From Candidatus Doudnabacteria bacterium (GTDB lineage Bacteria > Patescibacteriota > Doudnabacteria > UBA920): a stretch of DNA of 64,000 nt. The notes beneath the pieces were generated by a model. That model saw only the letters and a list, made by a program, of their open reading frames with translations, made no database searches and was not told the origin of the DNA. Shown piece after piece: positions 5,808 through 26,847 of this stretch. Location: contig JAEUSF010000001.1 of assembly GCA_016788665.1 (NCBI GenBank), positions 48,222-112,221 on the forward strand, given 5' to 3'. Every line of letters starts with the position of its first letter. Position 1 is the stretch's first letter. The translations under genes were made by a program, and so were the position numbers.

Positions 5808-6527
5808 TTATAAGTTAGCGCTCGTATGCACACCAATAACATCTTCGTCACTCTCTAATTCTGCAAATAAACTGTCTACTTTGGGCTTTTGTTCTTCCGT
5901 AAGATCTACTCCCTGGGAAGATTCTTTAATAATATCGGCTTTGGCAATTTTTGCTCCGACAGAAGTGAGTGCGTCTTTTATTTTTTTTAAATCAATCGGG
6001 GTAGTGTAAACTTCTAGGCCTTCTTCGGACTCTCGTACGTCATTTGCGCCGGCATCTATGGCAGCAAGCTCGATTCTTTCTAAACTATTGTCTCGTTTAA
6101 CCAATATTTGTCCCTTGGTTTCAAATTGCCAGGCAACAGAGTTTTGTGCGCCTATGCTGCCGCCATGTTTTGAAAAAATATGTCTAATATTTTGGTAAGT
6201 CCTGTTGGTGTTATCGGTCGCGGTCTCTACTAAAAAGGCTGTACCAAAAGGTCCATACCCTTCGTAAATTGCCTCGGTAATGCTGCCAGCTCCCCCACCC
6301 ATAGCCGCTTTAATGGCTCGTTCAATGTTGTCGTTTGGCATGCCCTGATCTTTGGCGTAGTCTATTGTGCTCTTTAGTTTATAATTTACGCTTGGGTCCC
6401 CACTTCCCCCGCCTTCCTTTACGGCAATGCTTATTTTTTTCCCAAGTTTAGAATATAAAAGCCCGCGCTTTTGGTCGAGTGCGCCTTTGCTGCGTTTTAT
6501 TTGTGACCATTTAGAATGACCGGACAT
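5808..6527 (-). CDS. yebC: YebC/PmpR family DNA-binding transcriptional regulator
   Basis: MSGHSKWSQIKRSKGALDQKRG N-terminus, diagnostic of the YebC/TACO1 family. Confidence 0.85.
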   Translation of the reverse strand: MSGHSKWSQIKRSKGALDQKRGLLYSKLGKKISIAVKEGGGSGDPSVNYKLKSTIDYAKDQGMPNDNIERAIKAAMGGGAGSITEAIYEGYGPFGTAFLVETATDNTNRTYQNIRHIFSKHGGSIGAQNSVAWQFETKGQILVKRDNSLERIELAAIDAGANDVRESEEGLEVYTTPIDLKKIKDALTSVGAKIAKADIIKESSQGVDLTEEQKPKVDSLFAELESDEDVIGVHTSANL

Positions 6528-6556: not shown

Positions 6557-7225
6557 TTAAGATTTGAAACTAATGATAACAGTAATCTCCCCTTTTATGC
6601 TTGGTTTTTCTTGAAGTTGGTGGATTACATCTAGCGGGTTGCCGCGAATGAATTCTTCGTGGAGTTTGGTAAGTTCTCTTGCTACAACTACGTTAGCTGT
6701 GGGAAATGCATTTGCTATGTAAGAAAGGGTTTTTAAAATTCTTTCCGGAGATTCATAAAAAATTGCTGTGGCTTCTGCTGCTTCCGCGGCTTGTAAGGCA
6801 GAAACGGTTTTTGCAGCTGTCTTTTGCAAAAATCCGAGAAACATAAAACGGTCGGTGGGCAGGCCCGAGGCAGAAAGCGCTGCTATGGCAGCATTGGCGC
6901 CAGGGATTGGAATTACTTGTACGTTTTGGTTAACGCATTCTCTAACCAGTCTAAACCCCGGGTCGCTTATGCCAGGAGTTCCGGCATCGGTAATAAATGC
7001 ACCGTTTTGTTTGGAGAGTCTTCGGGCTAGTTCTTTAACTACTTGCTGCTCGTTATGTTCTGCGAATTGGAATATTTCTTTATTTCTGATATCTAAATGT
7101 TGAAGCAACCTATTTGAATAACCAGGATTTTCTGCAACTATAAAATCGCACGCTTTTAAGGTTTCTATCGCGCGTAAGGTTATATCCCCCAGGTTCCCTA
7201 TTGGTGTTGCAACAACGTAAAGCAT
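6557..7225 (-). CDS. rsmI: 16S rRNA (cytidine1402-2'-O)-methyltransferase
   Basis: MLYVVATPIGNLGDITLRAIETL...DFIVAE, tetrapyrrole-methylase fold typical of RsmI. Confidence 0.85.
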   Translation of the reverse strand: MLYVVATPIGNLGDITLRAIETLKACDFIVAENPGYSNRLLQHLDIRNKEIFQFAEHNEQQVVKELARRLSKQNGAFITDAGTPGISDPGFRLVRECVNQNVQVIPIPGANAAIAALSASGLPTDRFMFLGFLQKTAAKTVSALQAAEAAEATAIFYESPERILKTLSYIANAFPTANVVVARELTKLHEEFIRGNPLDVIHQLQEKPSIKGEITVIISFKS

Positions 7226-7268
7226 TTGATTTAAAAGAATTAAAGGATTTAAATGACTGACAAGATTA

Positions 7269-7571
7269 TTAGAAATTATTTGAATGCTTGCTAATAGATG
7301 TTGACCTTGATGCTGTCATGACAGCTGTTAGTTCGTCAGCTTCTTTTAATAAAGATTCAACTGTTACCTCGTTTAAAATATTGGAAGCAACCATAAGTTC
7401 TAACCAGCCTAATGTTTCGTCTGGCTCTTTTACCACAGTCCCCATTTTCAAAATAAAATCTTTTGGTAATTTACTCCTACAAGCAGCTCTGTAGTTACTG
7501 TATATGTCAGTACCCGATCTTAAAATTTGATCCCCTATTTTTCTAACCACTAACCCATGATTTTTCTCCAA
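7269..7571 (-). CDS. four-helix-bundle protein (23S rRNA intervening-sequence protein family, TIGR02436/PF05635-like)
   Basis: SNYRAA..S...DFI.K....E..ET..WLEL pattern shared with the second copy at 46749-47093; flanked by inverted repeats (see findings). Confidence 0.55.
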   Translation of the reverse strand: MEKNHGLVVRKIGDQILRSGTDIYSNYRAACRSKLPKDFILKMGTVVKEPDETLGWLELMVASNILNEVTVESLLKEADELTAVMTASRSTSISKHSNNF

Positions 7572-7690
7572 ATATTGTACAAGTTTAACAATCCTTACCG
7601 CAAACTTTTTGGTTCTTTCTTTTAATTCGTCGCGTGTTATAGGGTGTAATCATTTAAATCTTTTAAATGATGTCGACCTTTTAAATCATA

Positions 7691-7963
7691 CTACTCGTCA
7701 GTAGGTTCTAGTCCAAACATTTCTTCTATAAGCTGGTACTTATTATGGAGCATTTCTCGGTAATCTCCTAATTCCCATTTAGAGTCACCTTCCGCTTGGT
7801 CGTAGTCGTCTTGAGTTTTTTTCAGTTCCTCATTTATTTCTTCTAGGATTTCGTAAGCCTGATCTTCGGTTTGAGGGGCTTGGTCCATCCATTCTTCAAA
7901 AGTTAGATTTAAAAGTTTTTCGTACTTTTCTTGATATATGTTTCTAAGTTTGTCTTGGTCCAT
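7691..7963 (-). CDS. small acidic hypothetical protein (90 aa)
   Basis: Complete ORF, highly acidic (many D/E), no recognised domain. Confidence 0.4.
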   Translation of the reverse strand: MDQDKLRNIYQEKYEKLLNLTFEEWMDQAPQTEDQAYEILEEINEELKKTQDDYDQAEGDSKWELGDYREMLHNKYQLIEEMFGLEPTDE

Positions 7964-8548
7964 AAGTAGTGTTTATGCGGATCTGCGGATTGGTCGCGGA
8001 TATGCTGATGTCTATGGATTATGCATCAGTAGGAATCCGTTTATCCGTGTACAATCAGTAGGTCCGTGTTAATTTAGTAGCTCATTTATTTTACAATAAA
8101 ATTTGAAAATGAAAAACCCCTTGCATATCCACTAAGTGGTCATGACAAGAGGTTTTTGAAAAGCTGAAAATAAGAGTCTATAGCCGTGCGATTCACCGCA
8201 CAGCCAATTGTCCAAAAAATGAGGACAAAATGAGCACGGCTTGTGCTTTAGTTTTTTTATTCGATTGTATTTTGTTTTTGTTTCATTCTCCTTTTGGAGA
8301 AGAAAATTGCTTTTCTATATACAGTATAGCAGATTTTTGTCCGCTTGTCTAGAGTCTTTTTGCTAAATTATGAAGGTTATCAAAAATGATGTTGGTAATT
8401 TTTTGTAGTCTCCTTAGTCAAAATCGTATTTTTTACTTCAAAATCGAAAAGTTTGCTTTTTAAATCTTTAAATTGCCGGAAATTTGCGTGAATTTGATCA
8501 GTGTTATCATAGAATATAACTGCCAATTTTATTTTTTTTGAAAGCATA

Positions 8549-10012
8549 CTATATCCAATCAAAATTAATTGCTGCTAGATCGTCAAAAGTTATGGTTTTG
8601 CTTAGTTTCTCTGAAGCGGGTATATATTTTTGAGAAAAATAGTCGTAAAGGTCAGCGGTGGCTACCGAAAGAAGTTTGTTAAATTCCATTTTAAAAACTT
8701 GGTCTAAATATTCTTTAGTCATACCATTTTGAGCTATTATATCTGCAGCGTATAAAGCCCTAATTTGTTCGTTTATGCGTCCAAAAAAGATTGCTATGCC
8801 AGCTATAAACCCTGTCGTGTCGACTTCATTTATAAGGTCGTGCTCGGTGGAATATTCGGTGTTTTCTAAACTTTTTAACCACGCTTGTCTAAAGTGTTCT
8901 AAGTAGACCGTTGAGCCATAGCCCGTAAGAGGTTTTACTCCGGCATAAAAGTTTAAAACAGAAAAAATGGTAAAAAGACTAGGGTAAATTTCTTTTTTTT
9001 CCAGCAATTCAATCACAATGTCTGGTTTAAGTTCTATGCTTAAATGTTTAAAGCGTTCGTCCTCCGGCACAAGCTTATTGCCTTGGATGTACATCCTTAA
9101 AGAGCGGGGTTCGTTTGGATATTTTCGCCAAAAGAAATGTGTGCCTTTTTTTTCTTTTTCGTTCCAAGCGACCACTATGCCTCGAAAGTTATTTATTACC
9201 TTATTTCTGAGATTTTCTTCAAACAAAGAGGCGGAAACAAAATTGTCCTCTCTTAATATTTGCTTTAAGCATTCTGCTATAAGCTCCTCTTGAGTAATAT
9301 ATATAAGTTCAGGTAGACGCTTTCTTACAGAGCCTTCAAAAATTAAAGGCCAAGTATTTTTTACAATTAAGCTAACTTGATCGTTATAATTTGTACAACT
9401 TTCAAAATTTATATTATTTACTAAACTTTGGTATTTATCTAAAAAGTTTTTTTCCGACTCGTTAAATACGTTCCATCGTTTTATATTCTTTAAGCGGTCT
9501 ACAAAATTAAAGTCCCTTTTTGGTATAAAGTAAGAACAGTACTCTCTTTCGTTAGCGCTAAATAAAGGAACAGTTTTTCCATGAAATTGAAAACCACTTT
9601 TGCTGAAATAATTGTTAGGCGGTACATCGCCACTGGAAATTACTATGGTGGCAGATTGCCTGCGGCTTCCCTGTATTTTTGAAACGCTACTTATTACGTT
9701 TGAGGAAACTAAAATTGGGTGGTTAAGTATTTGGTGGTGATCTGCAATATTAAAAGATAAATTTTCTTCCAATTCAACTCTTAACTGGTTAATGGCGTCA
9801 GGTCCAAATAATGCAGTGATTTTATTTAGCAAAATTTTTTTTATTAAGCCTTGTCTAGTTTTGTGTATATTAGAAACTTTGAAATTATACAACTTATCAG
9901 AGTAAATATTGACCGGGTCTTTGACATCTAAAAAGCGTGCAAAAAGCGGCACATAATGTTTTATCTGTTCTATAATTTTTTCTTTTTCCAAAATAATTTT
10001 GTCGGTATCCAT
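8549..10012 (-). CDS. hypothetical protein (487 aa), no recognised domain
   Basis: Long uninterrupted ORF in the AT-rich context; no P-loop or other diagnostic motif seen. Confidence 0.5.
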   Translation of the reverse strand: MDTDKIILEKEKIIEQIKHYVPLFARFLDVKDPVNIYSDKLYNFKVSNIHKTRQGLIKKILLNKITALFGPDAINQLRVELEENLSFNIADHHQILNHPILVSSNVISSVSKIQGSRRQSATIVISSGDVPPNNYFSKSGFQFHGKTVPLFSANEREYCSYFIPKRDFNFVDRLKNIKRWNVFNESEKNFLDKYQSLVNNINFESCTNYNDQVSLIVKNTWPLIFEGSVRKRLPELIYITQEELIAECLKQILREDNFVSASLFEENLRNKVINNFRGIVVAWNEKEKKGTHFFWRKYPNEPRSLRMYIQGNKLVPEDERFKHLSIELKPDIVIELLEKKEIYPSLFTIFSVLNFYAGVKPLTGYGSTVYLEHFRQAWLKSLENTEYSTEHDLINEVDTTGFIAGIAIFFGRINEQIRALYAADIIAQNGMTKEYLDQVFKMEFNKLLSVATADLYDYFSQKYIPASEKLSKTITFDDLAAINFDWI

Positions 10013-18632: not shown

Positions 18633-18878
18633 TTATGTATCTATATATTTTATTTTTAACAATTCTTTTTGCTGTCCGCTTTTATAAAACTTTTCCTTTT
18701 TCATGGCTTCGCTTCTGGTCAGACAAGTTTCATAACTCAATAGTTTCCATGGTCTGTAACCTTTGGTGGATTTAACTCTGCCTTTGTTATGCTGAGTATA
18801 CCTTAGTTGAACATTTTCGCATGATCCAATATAGACGTCGCCATTCTGAAGGCTTTTAAGAAAGTATACGTAATACAT
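18633..18878 (-). CDS. small GIY-YIG nuclease family protein (YhbQ/UPF0213-like)
   Basis: MYYVYFLKSLQNGDVYIGSCENVQLRYTQHNKGRVKSTKGYRPWKLLSYE...EAMKKEKFYKS carries the GIY...YIG...R...E...N motifs. The ORF-track version (to 18980) reads through a tRNA-Cys fragment; I prefer the internal ATG at 18876-18878, preceded by TATAAT. Confidence 0.7.
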   Translation of the reverse strand: MYYVYFLKSLQNGDVYIGSCENVQLRYTQHNKGRVKSTKGYRPWKLLSYETCLTRSEAMKKEKFYKSGQQKELLKIKYIDT

Positions 18879-18936
18879 AGAAACATTATACTTTTGTAGG
18901 TTTTGTCCCCCTACGGGGGATCTGCCGTAGGCATGA

Positions 18937-18974
18937 CAGACCGCCGCGTTACCACTTCGCCACTGCACCGAAAT
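18937..18974 (-). repeat. exact 38-bp duplicate of tRNA-Cys 5' end (5 nt upstream + nt 1-33), followed by a GC hairpin
   Basis: 18937-18974 is identical to 18595-18632. After the break in the anticodon loop comes TCATGCCTACGGCAGATCCCCCGTAGGGGGA, then 7 more tRNA-matching nt (CAAAACC). Confidence 0.8.
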
Positions 18975-19021
18975 GTACAATGAGGTAATTTTACTTCATT
19001 TGAATTTTTTTTTCAATACTA

Positions 19022-20118: not shown

Positions 20119-20769
20119 CTACAAAATTTTTATGTCAATTTCCCCATAGCTTTTAACAACTATATCGGCGTTTGCAATTTTTTGGGTTTCGAATGTGGTT
20201 CCAAGCCCCACGCAAAACATGTTTGCGCGTTTTGCTGCCTCTATACCTCTTGGTGAGTCCTCTATTACCACACATTCTTCTGGAAGCGAGCCCGTTTCTT
20301 TGGCGGCAAAGAGAAAAATAGCCGGGTCTGGTTTAGATTTGTTTTCTACTTTTGATATGCCAAATACCTTATTTTCAAAAAGTTTAAAGAGGCCAAGCTT
20401 TTGGTCTATCATTTTAAGAAAATCGTCGTTCGATGAGGTAGCTATGCAGGTTTTAAAACCCAGTTCCTTAATTTGTCTGTAAAAGTCTAAGAAACCGGGT
20501 ATAAACCCGATATTGTTTTGAAAGCTTTGGTCGAGGAGGCTTTTTCTTTCTCCATACAAAGTTTCTAGGTCCCCTGTAAAATTATATTTTTCTTTTAGAA
20601 CTCTAGTACCTTCTTTAATTTCTCTGCCCACCAGCAAGTCTTTTATTTCCTCTAACTTATAGGCAGTCCCGTGTCGCTTTAGAAATTCAAAATCTGCTTT
20701 CATGTAGACTTTTTCGGTGTCTACAACCACCCCGTCCATATCAAAAATTATTGTTGTATATTTTGGCAT
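20119..20769 (-). CDS. HAD-IA family hydrolase (beta-phosphoglucomutase-like phosphatase)
   Basis: Motif I IIFDMDGVVVDT; motifs II-IV (S/T, K, DD) present. Confidence 0.75.
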   Translation of the reverse strand: MPKYTTIIFDMDGVVVDTEKVYMKADFEFLKRHGTAYKLEEIKDLLVGREIKEGTRVLKEKYNFTGDLETLYGERKSLLDQSFQNNIGFIPGFLDFYRQIKELGFKTCIATSSNDDFLKMIDQKLGLFKLFENKVFGISKVENKSKPDPAIFLFAAKETGSLPEECVVIEDSPRGIEAAKRANMFCVGLGTTFETQKIANADIVVKSYGEIDIKIL

Positions 20770-20881
20770 AAAAATAGTTTAGCAGAAGCTGGTAAAACAA
20801 AAAAACTCCCATTGTTAGTTTTTAGTCCGCTTTATTCTTTGTCTATAATTAATGAGATTTAATTGAATAATAAATTATTTA

Positions 20882-21376
20882 TTATTTTTGAATTTTAAAG
20901 GAAGCAGCGCTTTGCCCCGCAGTTATTATATTATTACCGTTTGCGGAATATAATTGTATGCCTAATTTATAATCTCCGGGTTTTACGGAGTGGGTTTGCC
21001 AATTGGAACAGACTAAAAGCCCGTCCCACTTGAAGCTGGTTTTCGAATTTGCCAATGCTGTTGCGTCGCCACCTTTACTGCAGTCTGAATTGTTGGTTAT
21101 GCTGCCTAAAGCTTCCTCGCCGTTAGACGAAAGGAGTCTAAGATAAATTGTCGCATTCGTAGGAGGGTTTAACACGCTCCAAGACAGTGGTATATCAGCG
21201 CCCTCTCCTTGGGTAAATATTGAACCGCTTGGTAATACATTAGAAATCATGGCTTCAGGAGTTGTGGACGCGTTTTGGTTGACTATAGATTGTTTTTGAG
21301 TTTGTTGGGTCAAGCCGCACCCTGCTCCTAACACAGCAATTATAGAAAGAAAAAATAATAATTTTTTTATAAACAT
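20882..21376 (-). CDS. putative lipoprotein / secreted protein
   Basis: Preferred start MFIKKLLFFLSIIAVLGAGCGLTQ has a signal peptide and lipobox-like LGAGC; the ORF-track N-terminal extension to 21493 is unlikely. Confidence 0.5.
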   Translation of the reverse strand: MFIKKLLFFLSIIAVLGAGCGLTQQTQKQSIVNQNASTTPEAMISNVLPSGSIFTQGEGADIPLSWSVLNPPTNATIYLRLLSSNGEEALGSITNNSDCSKGGDATALANSKTSFKWDGLLVCSNWQTHSVKPGDYKLGIQLYSANGNNIITAGQSAASFKIQK

Positions 21377-21671
21377 GAGTATGTGGTTATATGACCTAAA
21401 CTTTACGACATTGAAAGTATAACAAAAAACTTTTGGTAGTAACAGGTGTTTTGAAAATAGCAAACTCCGCGTCCGGAAGGTTGTTGGCCGCACTAAATTT
21501 GTGGAAATAAATTACCAAGCAAGCTTGGGACCACTTTCGTTTGATTCCTCTTTCACGCCATAAACTAAAAGAAATCGCCCCACCCATAAAGGGTGAGGCG
21601 TTTTCTTTTGGAGCTGCCTAGTTAAGGATGTTAGAACTATGGTTATGGGAAACAGTAAGTCCTTAGAGGTG

Positions 21672-23948
21672 TTAAAATTTTTCTTTTAAAGAATAAAACA
21701 TGTCATCAATTTGTTTGTACTCGGAAGAATCAGTACTCGACGAAGTTCTATAGTCTTCTGGGTCTATATCCACATATTTTTCATTTTCTAGCTCATGTAC
21801 CTTATGCTCTAGCTGTTTTTCAATTTCTTTAATATCAACTTCTAACTCCTCGCTTATTTCTCTAAAATCAGTTTTTAAATCCTCGTAGGAGCCTTCAGAA
21901 ACGTAATCAATTTCGTTTTCTAGTATATCATTTATTGAACTTTTTATTTCATCAGACAATTTAATTTTTTTATATTCCTCGGGAAAAATTTCCGCAAATT
22001 TAATAAAATATTTTACATCCTCAATTGACTCCATCGTTTTAGAAAAGAAATCGACAATGCCAGTTTTATCAAATTTGGTGAAAGGAGCAATTATTTCTAG
22101 TATATCAATATAAAAATTTTTATCTTCCCCTTTAATTTTATTATATTCAATATGTCCAAATATTTTAAAAACAAAATTCTGCCATTCCAAATCTTCGTTT
22201 AAACTCAAATTATTGATTGCTAATTTGAGTTTATATAAAATACTCGTCGACCTCCTAGCCCAATAATAAATAGCGTCAGCGCTAAAAGAATGTACAGTTC
22301 TTATCAAATGAGAGATTTTAAAATCAGAAAGTCCATTTTTTATATTTTCTTTAATTGTTTTAACTTGTTTTTTGCTTAGGATTATTTTTTCATTGCTCTC
22401 TTCATTAACCGAAAAAACTGTAAAAAATTGATTCAAAAAAATAACGTTCGTGATTAGGTCGTCAACTAAATCGGAATCTCTTTTTAGGTAATTTAGCAAA
22501 AAATCTTTGATTGAAGGATTTTGGAAGTCAATATATATTTGACCTCTTCCATCTCTTTTTGAAGATATGAATGTATTTTCAAGCTCCTTAATAGAGTCTT
22601 TTAATGAAAAGGAGTTAAAAGTAAAATTGTATTTTTTTGAATATTTTTGGGCAAATTTTATAAATGCTTCCTTTAAATCTTCAAATAACGCTGGGCCTCC
22701 CATAGAAAGCAAAACCATTAGTAAGCATTTGGAAAAATTAGTAATTTGCTTTTCATAACTGTGTTTCCATATCAATTCAGGGTTGTCTAGGTAATTAATA
22801 AATTTGTCAAAAAATTTTAAAGGCTTTATATTTTCCCAAATGCTAGGATTTGTAATAGTTTCAATTATCCTAGGATTATAATTGGGATGGTTAATAATAC
22901 CCATATAGTTTTTGTCCTCAAGGATGTTTTCTATATAGGGCTTGCTTATGTTTGAAAAATATAGATGATTGTATAAAATTCTTGACTTAACAAGTTTATT
23001 ATATTTTGATAAATCCAAAATACATTTTGCCAATTGAAGATTTTTATTATCTAGGCGTTCATAATTTACCAGGGCTTGATTTAAAATATATTCTCTTGTA
23101 GTCAGAATTAAGATTTTATTTTTAGATTTATTAACCAAGTCAATAAATTTAATTATTCTTTCATCCTCGTTGTTAGATATTTTATTTTCTAAAAAATTAG
23201 TTCCCAAAAAATCATCAAAAAGAAAAATTTGTTTTCTTTCAGGATTTAGAGCCTTGTATCCCTCCCCAATGTTATCAGATAAGTACACAAAATCTTCAAA
23301 GTCATTAGCCAAAAAATGATATACCAGTATTCTAGCCAATGTCGTTTTGCCTATACCTGGTATTCCCGATATTATTACGTACTTTTTTTTACTTAAGATT
23401 TCGAGAGCTTCGTTATAACTATCGTTCTCAACATACACTTTAATATTCTCTTTAATTGATTCTTCCTCGAAACTCGATTGATTGTATACTTTACTTTGTA
23501 CCAACTTTTCAAGAATAGAAGTACTAGATAACCATAACTTGAAATGTCTTTTTTCTACATCGGGGAATTTTCCGAGTAAATTATTTAAATCGCTTCTGCT
23601 GAAGATGTCATTAGGAGAAATGATTATAGGCTTACATAAATCAAAAATAGTTTGTTTTTGTTTTCGTGATAAAGGTGAGGATGTTGTTAGTATATATCTT
23701 TTTGGTTTAAGTTTAATCGCTTTTCCGGCCTCTTTTTTTATATTTGAAATTAAGGAATTATAATTTTCGTATCTTTTACACTGCACAATAATTGTTTCCT
23801 CTTTGTCTTGATAGCAACGTAAATCAATTCCACCATCTCGACCAGCAATAAAACTTTCCAGACGAATATTAAGGAATTTTTGAAGCAAGTCCCTAGACAG
23901 AACCTCAAATTCAATCGACGATAAATTTAAAAAATTATAAATATCCAT
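21672..23948 (-). CDS. Avs-like antiviral STAND protein: N-terminal Mrr-like PD-(D/E)xK nuclease + STAND (NB-ARC-type) NTPase + helical C-terminal domain
   Basis: Residues about 10-70: FEVLSRDLL...GRDGGIDLR...IIVQCKRY (Mrr_cat-like, D...QxK). Walker A VIISGIPGIGKTTLARIL, Walker B KQIFLFDDFLG, then ILILTTREYIL (NB-ARC/STAND TTR motif). About 430 aa helical C-terminus. 3-nt gap to the upstream OLD gene. Confidence 0.8.
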   Translation of the reverse strand: MDIYNFLNLSSIEFEVLSRDLLQKFLNIRLESFIAGRDGGIDLRCYQDKEETIIVQCKRYENYNSLISNIKKEAGKAIKLKPKRYILTTSSPLSRKQKQTIFDLCKPIIISPNDIFSRSDLNNLLGKFPDVEKRHFKLWLSSTSILEKLVQSKVYNQSSFEEESIKENIKVYVENDSYNEALEILSKKKYVIISGIPGIGKTTLARILVYHFLANDFEDFVYLSDNIGEGYKALNPERKQIFLFDDFLGTNFLENKISNNEDERIIKFIDLVNKSKNKILILTTREYILNQALVNYERLDNKNLQLAKCILDLSKYNKLVKSRILYNHLYFSNISKPYIENILEDKNYMGIINHPNYNPRIIETITNPSIWENIKPLKFFDKFINYLDNPELIWKHSYEKQITNFSKCLLMVLLSMGGPALFEDLKEAFIKFAQKYSKKYNFTFNSFSLKDSIKELENTFISSKRDGRGQIYIDFQNPSIKDFLLNYLKRDSDLVDDLITNVIFLNQFFTVFSVNEESNEKIILSKKQVKTIKENIKNGLSDFKISHLIRTVHSFSADAIYYWARRSTSILYKLKLAINNLSLNEDLEWQNFVFKIFGHIEYNKIKGEDKNFYIDILEIIAPFTKFDKTGIVDFFSKTMESIEDVKYFIKFAEIFPEEYKKIKLSDEIKSSINDILENEIDYVSEGSYEDLKTDFREISEELEVDIKEIEKQLEHKVHELENEKYVDIDPEDYRTSSSTDSSEYKQIDDMFYSLKEKF

Positions 23949-23951
23949 AAA

Positions 23952-25913
23952 TTAAAGAGACTGGAATAAAGTAGTTATAACGCTAGGTATGTTTTGTTTG
24001 TCTTTAATTACAGATTTTATTAATTTGCCACTTTTTTCTCCCTTACTTGGCAGGCAGGCTTTTTTCTCTTTATTACTATCAAGATAAACTTTGTCACTTA
24101 GTAGCTTGTAAAACTTATGTTCTCTATCATTCTTTAAATCTTTTCTAATTTCTCTAAAAACACTCTCGTCATAATTAAGACCGCAACACTCTTTTAAAAC
24201 TTCAATCCAAACGCTGTCGTCTATGGAATCTTCTAAGTCATAAGTCCCAATCAAAGTAATATTTTTAGCGGATAAAGCTGAATCAGAGTCAAGCAGGTAA
24301 TAAACATGTTCTTCGCTTTTTTGAAAGTTTTTTAAAAGCTCTTCAAACATAGTTTTATTTTTTTTACATTCATCTTTCCCCCCTAGATTAATAAGTTGAA
24401 TTGAATCCTGCATTAGTGTTCTTCCAAAATACAACTCATAAAAATAAGGTATTAAAATTTCTTCGGTGGGTCCTTCTACACACAAAAATTTATCGTAAAA
24501 TAAGAAGTCGCTACTTTTAACTTTTAATGAGTTTAGGACATCTTCAACATTAGAGCATTCTAAAATTTCAGAATAACCATCTTTCAAAGTAAAACGTTTT
24601 ATATTTTTAATGTTCAGTCTGTCAACAAAAATTGTCGAATGAGTGCTAACAAAAACTTGATAATAACTTTGAGATAATTTTTTTAAAATATTATATAAAT
24701 CTCTTTGAGCAGCAGGGTATAGATGAATTTCTGGTTCATCAAAACACCATAGAAATTTTTTTCTAATATCTTCAGTCGTTATTTTTTGTAAACTTGCCCA
24801 TTTAATAAATGCAAACCAAATCTGTTTTTTTACTCCCTCTCCTTGTGACTCCAGTCTTATATCACCATCACTACTAGTTTTATTTATCATAATATCTGAA
24901 ACATTTTCCTCAATATTAAAACTAACTGCTGCTTTTATGGCAGTAATATTTGGGAGTTCTTCAAAAAGATTGCCGGCTTTCCCTGCAAGTTCTTGATTTA
25001 CTTCTTGTGTAACGGTTTCACTGAGTTCCTTTGCACTTGTTTGCAGCGTATTTTTATATCCTTCTATTTTTGAAGCCATTGAATCAGCCGCAAGTTTTTC
25101 GACATCTTTTAGAGTTACGTTCCAGTCAATATAACGACAAACTGGGAAAAACCCCTTATCTTTTTTTACAAAATCTTTGTGCTCAGCCCAGCTTAGCTCC
25201 ACATCACTTTTACTATAAATTGCCCTAATCAATTCAATGTTTTTAAATCTCCCTTTTTTATTTTCGTTTACAACTTCATCATTTGAAATATCCAATTCAC
25301 CCTTTTTATCTTTTAAAAAAGTTTGATTTTGACTCCAAAGCTGTAATGGATTCGATTTTGTTTCTTTAAGGCAAACAAAATATTTACCCGAGGAATTTTC
25401 CTTTGTAAATTGCTTGAGTATATATAGTTTATTTTCGGTTAAACTTTCTATGCTCCACTTAAGTATGTTAGTCGAGCTTTCGACAAAATCTTCACTAATA
25501 TCTTTTTCTTCAATTTTAAACTCCCCGATTATTGTCGTTGTGTTTTCAGTAAAATTAAAGATGGGTAAATTTAACTTTTCAAAGATTGAGTTATAATCTA
25601 ACTCGCTTATGCCCGTGTTTGAAATATCTGAAGTTAATTGGCCTTCTTTCGCAATATGAAAAGTACTATCCGTTTCTAATAGTAAACAAATGGCTTTTAA
25701 AAAAACAGATTTTCCAGCATCATTTATGCCAATGAAAACATTTGGAATATCCGGCTGTAAATCGACTATGACGTTTTTACAACTTTTGTAATTTATAATA
25801 GCCAAACGTTCTAAAATCATATTGATATTTTTTATTAAAGGCACCGCTGAATCAATTATAGGCTTAATTTTGCGAACAAACAAGTATAAATTTGTACAAT
25901 TTTTTAAGAACAT
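23952..25913 (-). CDS. OLD-family (overcoming lysogenization defect) nuclease: ABC/AAA_15-type ATPase + Toprim
   Basis: Walker A FIGINDAGKSVFLKAI; long coiled insertion; Walker B/D-loop LWCFDEPEIHLYPAAQ; Toprim glutamate FLCVEGPTEEILIP and DxD YLLDSDS. A probable true start is the internal ATG at 25818-25820 (MILERLAIINYK...). Confidence 0.85.
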   Translation of the reverse strand: MFLKNCTNLYLFVRKIKPIIDSAVPLIKNINMILERLAIINYKSCKNVIVDLQPDIPNVFIGINDAGKSVFLKAICLLLETDSTFHIAKEGQLTSDISNTGISELDYNSIFEKLNLPIFNFTENTTTIIGEFKIEEKDISEDFVESSTNILKWSIESLTENKLYILKQFTKENSSGKYFVCLKETKSNPLQLWSQNQTFLKDKKGELDISNDEVVNENKKGRFKNIELIRAIYSKSDVELSWAEHKDFVKKDKGFFPVCRYIDWNVTLKDVEKLAADSMASKIEGYKNTLQTSAKELSETVTQEVNQELAGKAGNLFEELPNITAIKAAVSFNIEENVSDIMINKTSSDGDIRLESQGEGVKKQIWFAFIKWASLQKITTEDIRKKFLWCFDEPEIHLYPAAQRDLYNILKKLSQSYYQVFVSTHSTIFVDRLNIKNIKRFTLKDGYSEILECSNVEDVLNSLKVKSSDFLFYDKFLCVEGPTEEILIPYFYELYFGRTLMQDSIQLINLGGKDECKKNKTMFEELLKNFQKSEEHVYYLLDSDSALSAKNITLIGTYDLEDSIDDSVWIEVLKECCGLNYDESVFREIRKDLKNDREHKFYKLLSDKVYLDSNKEKKACLPSKGEKSGKLIKSVIKDKQNIPSVITTLFQSL

Positions 25914-25953
25914 CGTAGTATAAATTTGATTATTTGATTAACTAATCAAGCTA

Positions 25954-26148
25954 ATGCAACACGGCGGACAAAGACCAAATTCGGGTCGTCCCAAAGGTAG
26001 TAAATCGAAAAATACCCTAGAGCGTGAAGCCCTAAGGCAATTTATATTTGACGAGGTTAAACGGAACCAAAAGAAAATTGTCGCTGCGTTAATCCGCCAA
26101 GCCACAAAAGGGCAAAGAAAAGGTGTCAGGTACAATTTTAGCAAATGA
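25954..26148 (+). CDS. small basic DNA-binding-like protein with phage terminase-small-subunit-type N-terminal motif
   Basis: MQHGGQRPNSGRPKGSKSKNT... (GRPKGS motif common in phage TerS/HTH proteins). Divergent from the OLD-STAND operon across an inverted-repeat operator. Confidence 0.4.
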   Translation: MQHGGQRPNSGRPKGSKSKNTLEREALRQFIFDEVKRNQKKIVAALIRQATKGQRKGVRYNFSK

Positions 26149-26209
26149 CCTTTCGGCTTCGCTCAGGCTCCAAAGAAAAAATTTCCAAAAAATGTGGAAG
26201 TTTTTTCTT

Positions 26210-26231
26210 TGGAGCGGCTAAGGGGAATCGA
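26210..26231 (-). repeat. 22-bp direct repeat of the tRNA-Gly 3' end (pseudo-tRNA fragment / att-like)
   Basis: tggagcggctaaggggaatcga is identical to 26418-26439. Confidence 0.8.
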
Positions 26232-26417
26232 CCCGCCCACGGTGGATTTTCAACTCCCTTTGGTTGTTTCAAATCTCACCTAACGCGGGCCCGTCACTAC
26301 CAAAAACTGCGCTCGCTCGCTTTTGGTTTCCGCCTTTGGCGGAACCGTTCCCGTTCGATTCCTCCAAGCCATTACAAACAAAAAATCCGATTACCGTAAA
26401 GGCAATCAGATTTTTTG

Positions 26418-26491
26418 TGGAGCGGCTAAGGGGAATCGAACCCCTATCCTCTCCATGGCAAGGAGAAGTTCTACCATTGAACCATAGCCGC
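26418..26491 (-). tRNA. tRNA-Gly, anticodon GCC
   Basis: GCGGCTA...TCTCC-TTGCCAT-GGAGA...GGGGG-TTCGATT-CCCCT-TAGCCGC-T-CCA. Confidence 0.85.
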
Positions 26492-26536
26492 AAGTAATAA
26501 CTATTTTATCAATTCTATTTAATTTGGCAAATTTTT

Positions 26537-26611
26537 TGGTGCCGCGGGTCAGGATCGAACTGACGACACGACGCTCTTCAGGCGTCTGCTCTACCACTGA
26601 GCTACCGCGGC
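26537..26611 (-). tRNA. tRNA-Phe, anticodon GAA
   Basis: GCCGCGG-TA-GCTC-AGTGGTA-GAGC...GACGC-CTGAAGA-GCGTC...GTCAG-TTCGATC-CTGAC-CCGCGGC-A-CCA. Confidence 0.85.
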
Positions 26612-26614
26612 TTG

Positions 26615-26847
26615 TTTAACTTGTTTTTTAAAAGCCTTCTTCCAGCTGCTGTTTTTAAATACAATTCTCTTTTTCTAGCTTCGTCGAATGTATTAAGTTC
26701 TTCAGTATAAACTATTTTAATATTTTCCATTCTTGAAGTGGTTTAAGTATGTCCGTATTTGTGTTCTTTAAGACGTCTTTCCAGATCCTTAGTCATTCCT
26801 TTGTATAGCTTACCATCTTTATCTCTCAATACATATACAGTATACAT
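26615..26847 (-). pseudogene. frameshifted GIY-YIG nuclease gene (second copy of the tRNA-associated cassette)
   Basis: Minus strand from ATG 26845-26847: MYTVYVLRDKDGKLYKGMTKDLERRLKEHKYGHT then stop. Shifted frames continue ..KPLQEWKILK.. and ..VYTEELNTFDEARKRELYLKTAAGRRLLKNKLNK, the same family as 18633-18878. Confidence 0.65.

Follow-up and report, generated by a model that had tools for sequence, protein, structure and literature searches.

Defence systems are among the accessory genes of phage-inducible chromosomal islands such as the Staphylococcus aureus pathogenicity islands (PICI/SaPI). The components of these phage satellites, including the position of their accessory genes, have been listed in the literature (PMC10085698). 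In this study, a locus related to islands of comparable gene content was analysed in a 64,000-nucleotide stretch of contig JAEUSF010000001.1 of a Candidatus Doudnabacteria bacterium (hereafter the window). In the window, a small gene (25954-26148, plus strand) preceded by an array of TTGATT half-sites faces an operon that encodes an OLD-family nuclease and a STAND protein, beside the gene for tRNA-Gly(GCC). The feature is probably the front-end stump of a phage-satellite-like island that brought the OLD and STAND genes into the tRNA-Gly site, and thus a scar rather than a dedicated defence regulator.

The intact relatives of this locus are, like PICIs, small (~5-11 kb), and they carry an integrase, replication-like genes and an orphan terS (the gene for the small terminase subunit), with neither a gene for the large terminase subunit (TerL) nor structural genes. 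Their accessory genes likewise lie beyond terS, far from the integrase. Unlike PICIs, they use a large serine recombinase instead of a tyrosine recombinase, their TerS is related to DUF5681, and their hosts are bacteria of the candidate phyla radiation (CPR) and Planctomycetota; moreover, no alpA/stl/merR-type regulator or capsid-morphogenesis gene was recognised in them. The copy in the window departs further from a PICI in being without integrase, replication genes and an intact terS.

Two other groups of elements are close in design. Satellites with a large serine recombinase, some of them with a TerS homologue, are known from Vibrio cholerae as PICI-like elements (PLEs) (PMC10085698). The present islands resemble these anti-phage elements in being satellite-like and in relying on a large serine recombinase; unlike them, PLEs are ~18 kb in size and specific to Vibrio and phage ICP1, and the two are likened here by gene content. 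To our knowledge, PLEs are not integrated in tRNA 3' ends. Integration at tRNA genes and tandem att scars are found in P4-like satellites, P2-like prophages and tycheposons. These elements likewise combine a conserved backbone with one slot of interchangeable defence systems, and they differ in having tyrosine recombinases and other core genes. In the islands described here, the slot lies between the terS promoter and a conserved block of 113 nt.

A truncated phage small-terminase gene

The small gene encodes 64 amino acids (aa; translation MQHGGQRPNSGRPKGSKSKNT...), and its product had been described in a first-pass annotation as TerS-like and as a possible phage-derived remnant; both descriptions are supported. 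Its sole close homologue in a word-indexed search was P0001 (104 aa), with 91% aa identity over the aligned stretch and divergence thereafter. When P0001 was used as a phmmer query, 291 cluster representatives were retrieved at E<=1e-3, nearly all of them 85-130 aa long, so that the open reading frame (ORF) belongs to a family of ~100-aa proteins. Alignments of 26 and 71 members revealed a conserved family core, GGxRxGAGRPxGSK...T.E.EALR..........NK..I..ALI..A..G....A.KELLDR.LGK, which extends to about residue 75. A hidden Markov model (HMM) built from the 71 members matched the window at 25942-26145 (model positions 1-59 of 100, E 5e-22), and no second piece of the family HMM was detected elsewhere in the window. 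Homology to the full-length relatives ends at codon 54, at about position 26116: codons 1-54 are homologous, the last 10 codons are unrelated, and the part that is absent includes the most conserved core of the family, KELLDRxLGK.

The structural consequences of the truncation were assessed with AlphaFold2. The full-length protein, modelled from 71 aligned sequences with a mean predicted local distance difference test score of 79.9, has a disordered basic tail (residues 1-18), three helices (19-37, 39-51 and 55-66) and, at its C-terminus, a beta-hairpin. The window product, as modelled, comprises the tail plus two confidently predicted helices; neither helix 3 nor the beta-hairpin of the C-terminus is present. 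The GRPKGSK motif in the tail is one that we take to resemble an AT-hook. No helix-turn-helix family of Pfam matched the window ORF or the family members, a profile search of PDB sequences returned chance matches only, and searches by fold gave weak results. Among viral structures, those closest to the model belong to DUF5681 proteins of uncultured tailed phages, and a weak DUF5681 match is also present in 23 of 26 family members. Pfam assigns no function to DUF5681, and the only paper on it that was found simply records such a protein in the virion proteome of a phage (PMC8954984).

The identity of the family is given by its phage members, which occupy the position of the small terminase gene. 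In phage contig L010, an HNH endonuclease gene precedes the family member (51% identical to the query set), which in turn precedes a Terminase_3 TerL. The family member is followed by a Terminase_6N TerL in L020 (an IMG/VR contig), L023 and L024, and it has NinG and Mom upstream in the latter two; in L025 it is preceded by RusA and YopX and followed by a 474-aa protein homologous to these TerL proteins. In the fifth context, L021/L022, the genes after the family member are a 661-aa ORF that bears an intein, a gene of portal size and a capsid gene. The family member lies directly upstream of the next ORF and overlaps it by 11-44 nt in all five independent phage contexts, and in four of the five this next ORF is TerL. 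Because its phage members sit directly upstream of TerL and overlap it, the family is taken to be a phage small terminase, related to DUF5681. PHROG 18735 ('terminase small subunit') was matched by 6 of the 71 members. The window contains no TerL, so the TerS-TerL adjacency is absent there.

As for the 661-aa gene of L021/L022 (3120-5105), it carries PT-HINT and intein-splicing domains and is probably a TerL interrupted by an intein; its product was not matched in phmmer searches with other TerL sequences.

A tblastn search of annotated phages and plasmids with a family member gave no match, the terS set had relatives on one phage contig in IMG/VR (a search that reaches close relatives only), and no exact copy of the 64-aa product or of the STAND protein is on record in gene collections. 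The nearest genome-resolved relatives of the small gene come from Doudnabacteria and Saccharibacteria. A second shortened copy of the gene, P0006 (69 aa), exists at another locus, where a GIY-YIG gene overlaps the 3' end of the stump. A small GIY-YIG ORF is also found in the window, at 18633-18980, adjoining tRNA-Cys.

The TTGATT array and the divergent promoter region

The TTGATTA copies, the palindrome and the 64-aa ORF facing the OLD gene, as described in the first-pass annotation, were all found in the window. TTGATTA occurs at 25926-25932 (plus strand), 25934-25940 (plus) and 25943-25949 (minus); the perfect palindrome TTGATTAACTAATCAA spans 25934-25949, and with the first copy it makes up an array of three half-sites at 25926-25949 (TTGATT at 25926, TTGATT at 25934 and AATCAA at 25944). 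A lone 7-bp inverted repeat is not significant here, because the window contains 109 perfect inverted repeats of 7 bp (spacer 0-6 nt), as against ~56 expected under a first-order Markov model. The word TTGATTA is not enriched either (12 copies in the window vs 18.7 expected). The cluster of three TTGATT/AATCAA hexamers within 24 nt, however, is the sole instance in the window, and any such cluster arose in 9 of 300 simulations.

Homologous loci share the array. AATCAA/TTGATT is present at least twice in the 40 nt 5' of the ATG in six of eight homologous loci, with 15 occurrences in total, whereas in 2000 shuffles no hexamer exceeded 4 loci or 11 occurrences. The exact arrangement TTGATT-N4-AATCAA occurs once each in the window and the related loci L001, L002 and L003, each time immediately upstream of the homologous ATG, and nowhere else in the 25 fetched loci. 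The upstream flanks of the homologues are otherwise poorly alignable, with an ungapped identity of 29% at -90 to -41 vs 37% at -40 to -1. From the -10-like hexamer to the ATG, the sequence reads TAGTAT-aaat-TTGATTatTTGATTaactAATCAAgctaATG in the window, TATTAT-aagc-TTGATTaataAATCAActTATCAAgtttATG in L001, TAATAT-gatt-TTGATTtactAATCAAgtTATCAAgtttATG in L002, TAAAAT-gagc-TTGATTaaacAATCAAgaAATCAAaatATG in L003 and TACGAT-gaac-TTGATTgtTTGAATtaaaAATCAAactgaATG in L004, and the sequence 5' of the ATG in L005 is TTGATTatTTGATT. The half-sites are spaced 8-10 bp apart, and the array of the window ends 4 nt before the ATG. Since the middle half-site of the window is inverted relative to that of L001-L003, the dyad in the window is formed by sites 2 and 3, not by sites 1 and 2.

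These data bear on whether the small ORF is not a real gene and the repeats arose by chance in AT-rich sequence. The abundance of 7-bp inverted repeats, the lack of TTGATTA enrichment and the lack of an exact copy of the product in gene collections are what such a reading would predict; the family HMM match (E 5e-22) and an array kept in position and sequence where the flanks no longer align speak against it, and on this sequence evidence it is effectively refuted. The palindrome arms are invariant among the loci, and only the spacer or loop varies, a pattern that favours recognition of the DNA by a protein over a hairpin in RNA. A role as an RNA hairpin was rejected for the palindrome, since invariant arms around a variable loop provide no supporting covariation. 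An IHF-type site (WATCAANNNNTTR) was also considered for the AATCAA half-sites and rejected on inspection, the downstream TTR being absent.

The position of the array relative to the promoter is likewise conserved. The predicted promoter of the small gene (25892-25921, plus strand) comprises a -35 element, TTGTAC (25892-25897), an 18-nt spacer and a -10 element, TAGTAT (25916-25921). In the window and in L001-L004, a -10-like hexamer lies exactly 4 nt before the first TTGATT, and a TTGT -35-like element is found 18-20 nt upstream of the hexamer (18 nt in the window, L002 and L004). Because the half-sites begin 4 nt after the -10-like hexamer, the predicted transcription start falls inside the array. 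The palindrome had been proposed to be an operator, and this proposal is supported: with the promoter hexamers as predicted, a dyad-symmetric site lies over the transcription start of the small gene, before its ATG, and this geometry is kept in relatives whose flanks cannot be aligned. In this respect the array resembles the palindromic operator that an autoregulated phage repressor has over its own transcription start.

The OLD-STAND operon appears to have a separate promoter (25855-25883, minus strand), recognised by eye, with a -35 element TTGTTT (25883-25878), a 17-nt spacer and a -10 element TATAAT (25860-25855). The two predicted -35 elements are 8 bp apart, and the array is ~45-70 bp from the predicted OLD -35 element. 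The palindrome does lie between the OLD gene and the small ORF, as had been stated; the OLD start, however, is more likely ATG 25820 than the end of the open frame (25913), because the AAA_15 match and the PADLOC GajA/AriA models begin at residue 32. Given this start, the intergenic region (25821-25953) is 133 bp and not 40 bp long.

It was also proposed that the small protein is a repressor of the defence operon, that is, a functional short DNA-binding protein that represses or tunes OLD-STAND through the palindrome. The ORF is intact and its promoter geometry conserved, its 54 homologous codons are 91% identical in protein to the relative at 80% nucleotide identity, the modelled product retains the basic GRPKGSK tail and two confident helices, and P0006 provides a second truncated copy. 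In addition, a lone AATCAA at 25850-25855, which on the minus strand reads TTGATT (25855-25850), reaches into the predicted OLD -10 element. This is the only sequence hint of the small protein reaching the defence promoter, and it is within chance expectation: it is not kept in L001-L003, and with 53 such hexamers in 64 kb, the presence of one in a region of 133 bp is unremarkable. Against a regulatory role, the array covers the start region of the small gene and not the OLD promoter, the missing part of the protein belongs to the most conserved core of its family, and elsewhere the gene and its array belong to the island core and stand beside five unrelated cargos. A repressor of OLD-STAND is therefore improbable, and the proposal is not sustained by the comparison.

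The divergent promoter region also contains an imperfect 34-bp tandem duplication (25868-25935, 71% identity). Both copies hold AGTATAAATTTG, which gives two TATAAA boxes 34 bp apart.

A different function for the array is suggested by its resemblance to phage packaging sites. In phage lambda, the cosB region is made up of three R sites that bind Nu1, immediately before the Nu1 gene, and many pac sites are located within terS or beside it. The TTGATT array could accordingly be a pac or cosB-like site at which the orphan TerS directs the TerL of a helper phage, so that island DNA is packaged; the copy in the window would then be a pac site no longer in use. As with lambda cosB and gpNu1, several short sites of mixed orientation lie immediately upstream of a small-terminase gene; the lambda R sites are longer and extend over ~100 bp with an IHF site between them, whereas the half-sites here are of 6 bp and all three fit within 24 bp, downstream of the -10 element and upstream of the ATG. 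In phage genomes, the family is found at the TerS position, the islands have terS without terL or structural genes, and each element has exactly one array, adjoining terS. A variant of the array, TAGATTgtTAGATTtttTATCAA, is present in phage contig L010, where it extends over the end and stop codon of the HNH gene, and the intergenic gap to terS is 12 nt. The fixed place of the array, 4 nt after the -10-like hexamer and directly 5' of the ATG, is that of an operator instead, and no array was seen upstream of terS in the phage members L020, L021, L023 and L025. A packaging site is on balance unlikely, and it is kept alive as an explanation because the 12-nt gap in L010 leaves little room for a promoter. 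The operator and packaging-site readings are mutually compatible.

Related islands and a probable decayed copy at tRNA-Gly

The closely related copies of the small gene lie in islands and not in phages, and the intact islands share a fixed layout. In L001-L005, the cargo is on the minus strand, and the terS-like gene, small genes and a large serine recombinase gene are on the plus strand, the minus-strand genes ending ~130-150 bp before the terS-like gene. Between the terS-like gene and the recombinase gene are one to five small genes, some of them replication-like. Homologous proteins of 141-147 aa, without a significant match in Pfam, are encoded in L001 and L002, and the L001 protein of this class looked winged-helix-like on our own reading of its sequence; an AAA_25 gene is present in L004 and a DUF3987 gene in L006. 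Among the scanned genes of L001-L005, with some small ORFs outside the scan, Pfam recognised no alpA/stl/merR-type regulator. No TerL was found in the island loci L001-L006. The interval from terS to the tRNA (in L003, to the contig end) is only 3.4-5.8 kb, which leaves no room for structural genes.

The recombinases contain Resolvase, Recombinase and Zn_ribbon_recom domains, and homologues are encoded downstream in L001-L005; a large serine recombinase is also present in L006. The recombinase ORF extends over the 3' end of a tRNA gene on the minus strand, namely tRNA-Gly in L002 (14014-14025), tRNA-Glu in L004 (15498-15546) and tRNA-Trp in L005 (13533-13547), and in L001 it ends on a tRNA 3' end at the contig end (~6380-6410). 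The L003 contig ends inside the recombinase gene, short of the junction. As the reading frame runs 12-49 nt into the tRNA, the recombinase gene has its stop codon within the tRNA gene, and the attP core may be at the extreme end of the recombinase gene. In L006, from Planctomycetota, a cargo-less element of 4.8 kb lies between two copies of tRNA-Ser(cga). No relatives of the L002 recombinase were found in IMG/VR, in a search that reaches close relatives only.

The constant company of a large serine recombinase in L001-L006 raises the question of whether the family protein is its recombination directionality factor, the array being merely part of the promoter or 5' untranslated region. Serine integrases have directionality factors that are small, varied and not easily recognised from their sequences, which would fit such a protein. 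Those that are known act on the recombinase and need no DNA-binding tail, however, and the same family precedes TerL in phages that show no nearby serine recombinase, so that this reading is very improbable.

Defence or candidate-defence cargo adjoins terS in five of the six loci. The cargo is PDC-S06 in L001; a C5 methylase, Vsr, PDC-M33A and DUF6339 in L002; a type I restriction-modification system, YgjP and an OLD-like nuclease in L003; and an HNH protein, a protein with a weak type II endonuclease match and a C5 methylase in L004. L005 carries two minus-strand genes for proteins of 455 aa (7043-8410) and 486 aa (8418-9878), neither with a Pfam or PADLOC match, which are candidates for new anti-phage genes. 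The L005 island is bounded on the left by a copy of the tRNA-Trp 3' end (6761-6781). A second exact 17-nt copy of this 3' end lies beyond the left end of the island, at 5939-5955, and brackets a Ham1-family gene.

The full-length homologue at 7998-8294 of L008/L009, 65% identical and without the array, is followed by no recombinase and lies 2.7 kb from tRNA-Glu. The locus may be another decayed island with a different outcome.

In the window, the cargo consists of two genes separated by 3 nt. The first encodes an OLD-family ATPase-TOPRIM nuclease (23952-25820, minus strand; Pfam AAA_15 2.9e-30 from residue 32 and OLD-like_TOPRIM 3.2e-10; PADLOC Old 3.3e-38). The second encodes a 758-aa Mrr-type nuclease fused to an nSTAND3 NTPase (21672-23948, minus strand; Pfam nSTAND3 1.2e-53 and Mrr_cat 7.7e-07; PADLOC PDC-S73 1.5e-161 over the full length). 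A link to Avs proteins, STAND proteins reported to sense terminase subunits, had been raised on account of the terminase-like neighbour and is not supported: the STAND protein has the Mrr_cat and nSTAND3 composition of PDC-S73 and no Avs match, and its adjacency to a terminase gene is due to the island architecture. The GC content of the cargo (21.6-25.9 kb) is 26-32%, compared with 38-44% in the sequence to either side.

The left edge of the cargo, where the GC content falls from ~40% to 26-32%, is marked by a conserved non-coding block (21568-21680), in which a bidirectional terminator hairpin is followed by TTTTCTTTTGGAGCTGCC, a degenerate stretch resembling a tRNA 3' end. The block is ~80% identical over 113 nt to L002 3020-3129 (blastn), the adjacent cargo being unrelated, and a 161-nt MAFFT alignment of the left block has a mean column identity of 83%. 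By these features it is a candidate for the left island junction, and the swappable cargo slot lies between it and the terS promoter.

The window and L002 are syntenic on both sides of the island. On one side, the two share a decarboxylase gene, tRNA-Leu(taa), tRNA-Cys and a homologous gene for a protein of 219/230 aa; on the other, tRNA-Gly(gcc), tRNA-Phe and tRNA-Val, and the homology of terS and its promoter covers 25863-26116 of the window. From the end of the terS homology to tRNA-Gly there are 3.84 kb in L002, which hold the rest of terS, two small genes and the recombinase gene, vs 294 bp in the window. No recombinase gene (18.6-26.5 kb) or replication module is present at the island in the window. 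Between the shared flank and the island, the window has a HAD hydrolase gene and a 203-aa ORF (20119-21493), and L002 has a 146-aa gene instead.

The sequence that follows the stump has no counterpart in the relatives. The junction segment (26117-26209) had no homologue in any related locus in blastn and tblastx comparisons with the fetched loci, nor did 26117-26417 as a whole in all fetched loci. An AT-rich hairpin with 21-nt arms, 95% complementary, occupies 26167-26215 and may be a bidirectional terminator. The folding energy of 26117-26417 has a z score of -9.8, mostly from two terminator hairpins. Rfam recognised tRNAs only; a permissive scan of 25800-26700 added chance-level matches of the microRNA type on the hairpin.

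The 3' end of tRNA-Gly(GCC), from the T-loop to CCA, is duplicated exactly over 22 nt at 26210-26231 (minus strand), which matches 26418-26439. No such duplicate was expected in shuffles; with flank, the duplication extends to 32 nt at 91%, and it lies 208 bp from the intact tRNA gene (26418-26491, minus strand), the integration target, on which the recombinase ORF ends in L002. By its sequence, the duplicate is an att-type scar. L005 carries two such tRNA-3'-end copies in tandem on its left, with identity ending in the T-loop region as in the window copy, and att-type scars thus recur in this element family. The duplicate in the window is located between the stump and the tRNA gene, not at the far end of the cargo. 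It is followed by a 186-bp spacer (26232-26417), which includes a partial copy of the att core in inverted orientation (26355-26385) as well as the tRNA terminator (26378-26418) and is probably the residue of an element end. The duplicate and the spacer together suggest a second integration or a rearrangement at tRNA-Gly.

Origin of the locus and its wider meaning

The history that best accounts for the locus can be outlined as follows. An island at tRNA-Gly(GCC) would have lost ~3.8 kb, from codon 55 of terS through the recombinase gene. Left behind would be the OLD and Mrr-STAND cargo, the terS promoter with its TTGATT array, the 54 homologous codons and the 22-nt duplicate. In intact islands, the array may be an autoregulatory operator over the transcription start, bound by the TerS-like protein itself through its basic GGxRxGxGRPKGSK tail and helical domain. 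The window protein, without helix 3 and the C-terminal part, is probably inactive, and its array is expected to be vestigial because the protein is without the most conserved part of the family. The OLD-STAND operon would be driven by its own back-to-back promoter.

Several observations weigh against this explanation. Both predicted promoters scored below the threshold of the scan tool. The DUF5681 (PF18932) scores, 19.0 bits for the window ORF and 20.7 bits for P0001, are below the gathering cut-off of 27.5. At L008/L009, a full-length gene 65% identical in sequence has no array. The similarity of the left block to the tRNA-Gly 3' end (~16/17 nt with a gap, at ~21609) is not above background. 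The retained 54 codons show no excess of aa changes, with 5 differences from L001 of which, by eye, one is clearly on the window branch, and the stump is therefore either recent or still under selection. Finally, a chimeric metagenome assembly at ~26116 may be the source of the truncation.

For the window alone, the biological consequence of an island stump is modest, the small gene being most likely a scar, and it is the wider pattern that is of moderate interest. The presence of an OLD and Mrr-STAND pair beside tRNA-Gly is explained as the cargo of a small integrative element whose mobility genes have since been lost. From their position before TerL, DUF5681-type proteins gain a testable role as phage small terminases.

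Moreover, the compact islands of CPR bacteria have hallmarks of phage satellites, namely a serine recombinase that targets tRNA genes, an orphan terS and a swappable defence slot, and no described satellites of CPR bacteria were found in a limited literature search. We tentatively suggest, as a possibility that falls short of an even chance, that these islands are undescribed minimal phage satellites of CPR bacteria (Patescibacteria), with cargo-less kin in Planctomycetota. Such satellites would insert into tRNA 3' ends by a serine recombinase, and their orphan DUF5681-type TerS would hijack the packaging motor of a helper phage via the TTGATT array. They would carry a swappable defence slot, whose cargo stays in the genome after the mobility genes decay. 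The slot adjoining terS is also a practical place for finding new defence genes, such as those for the 486-aa and 455-aa proteins of L005.

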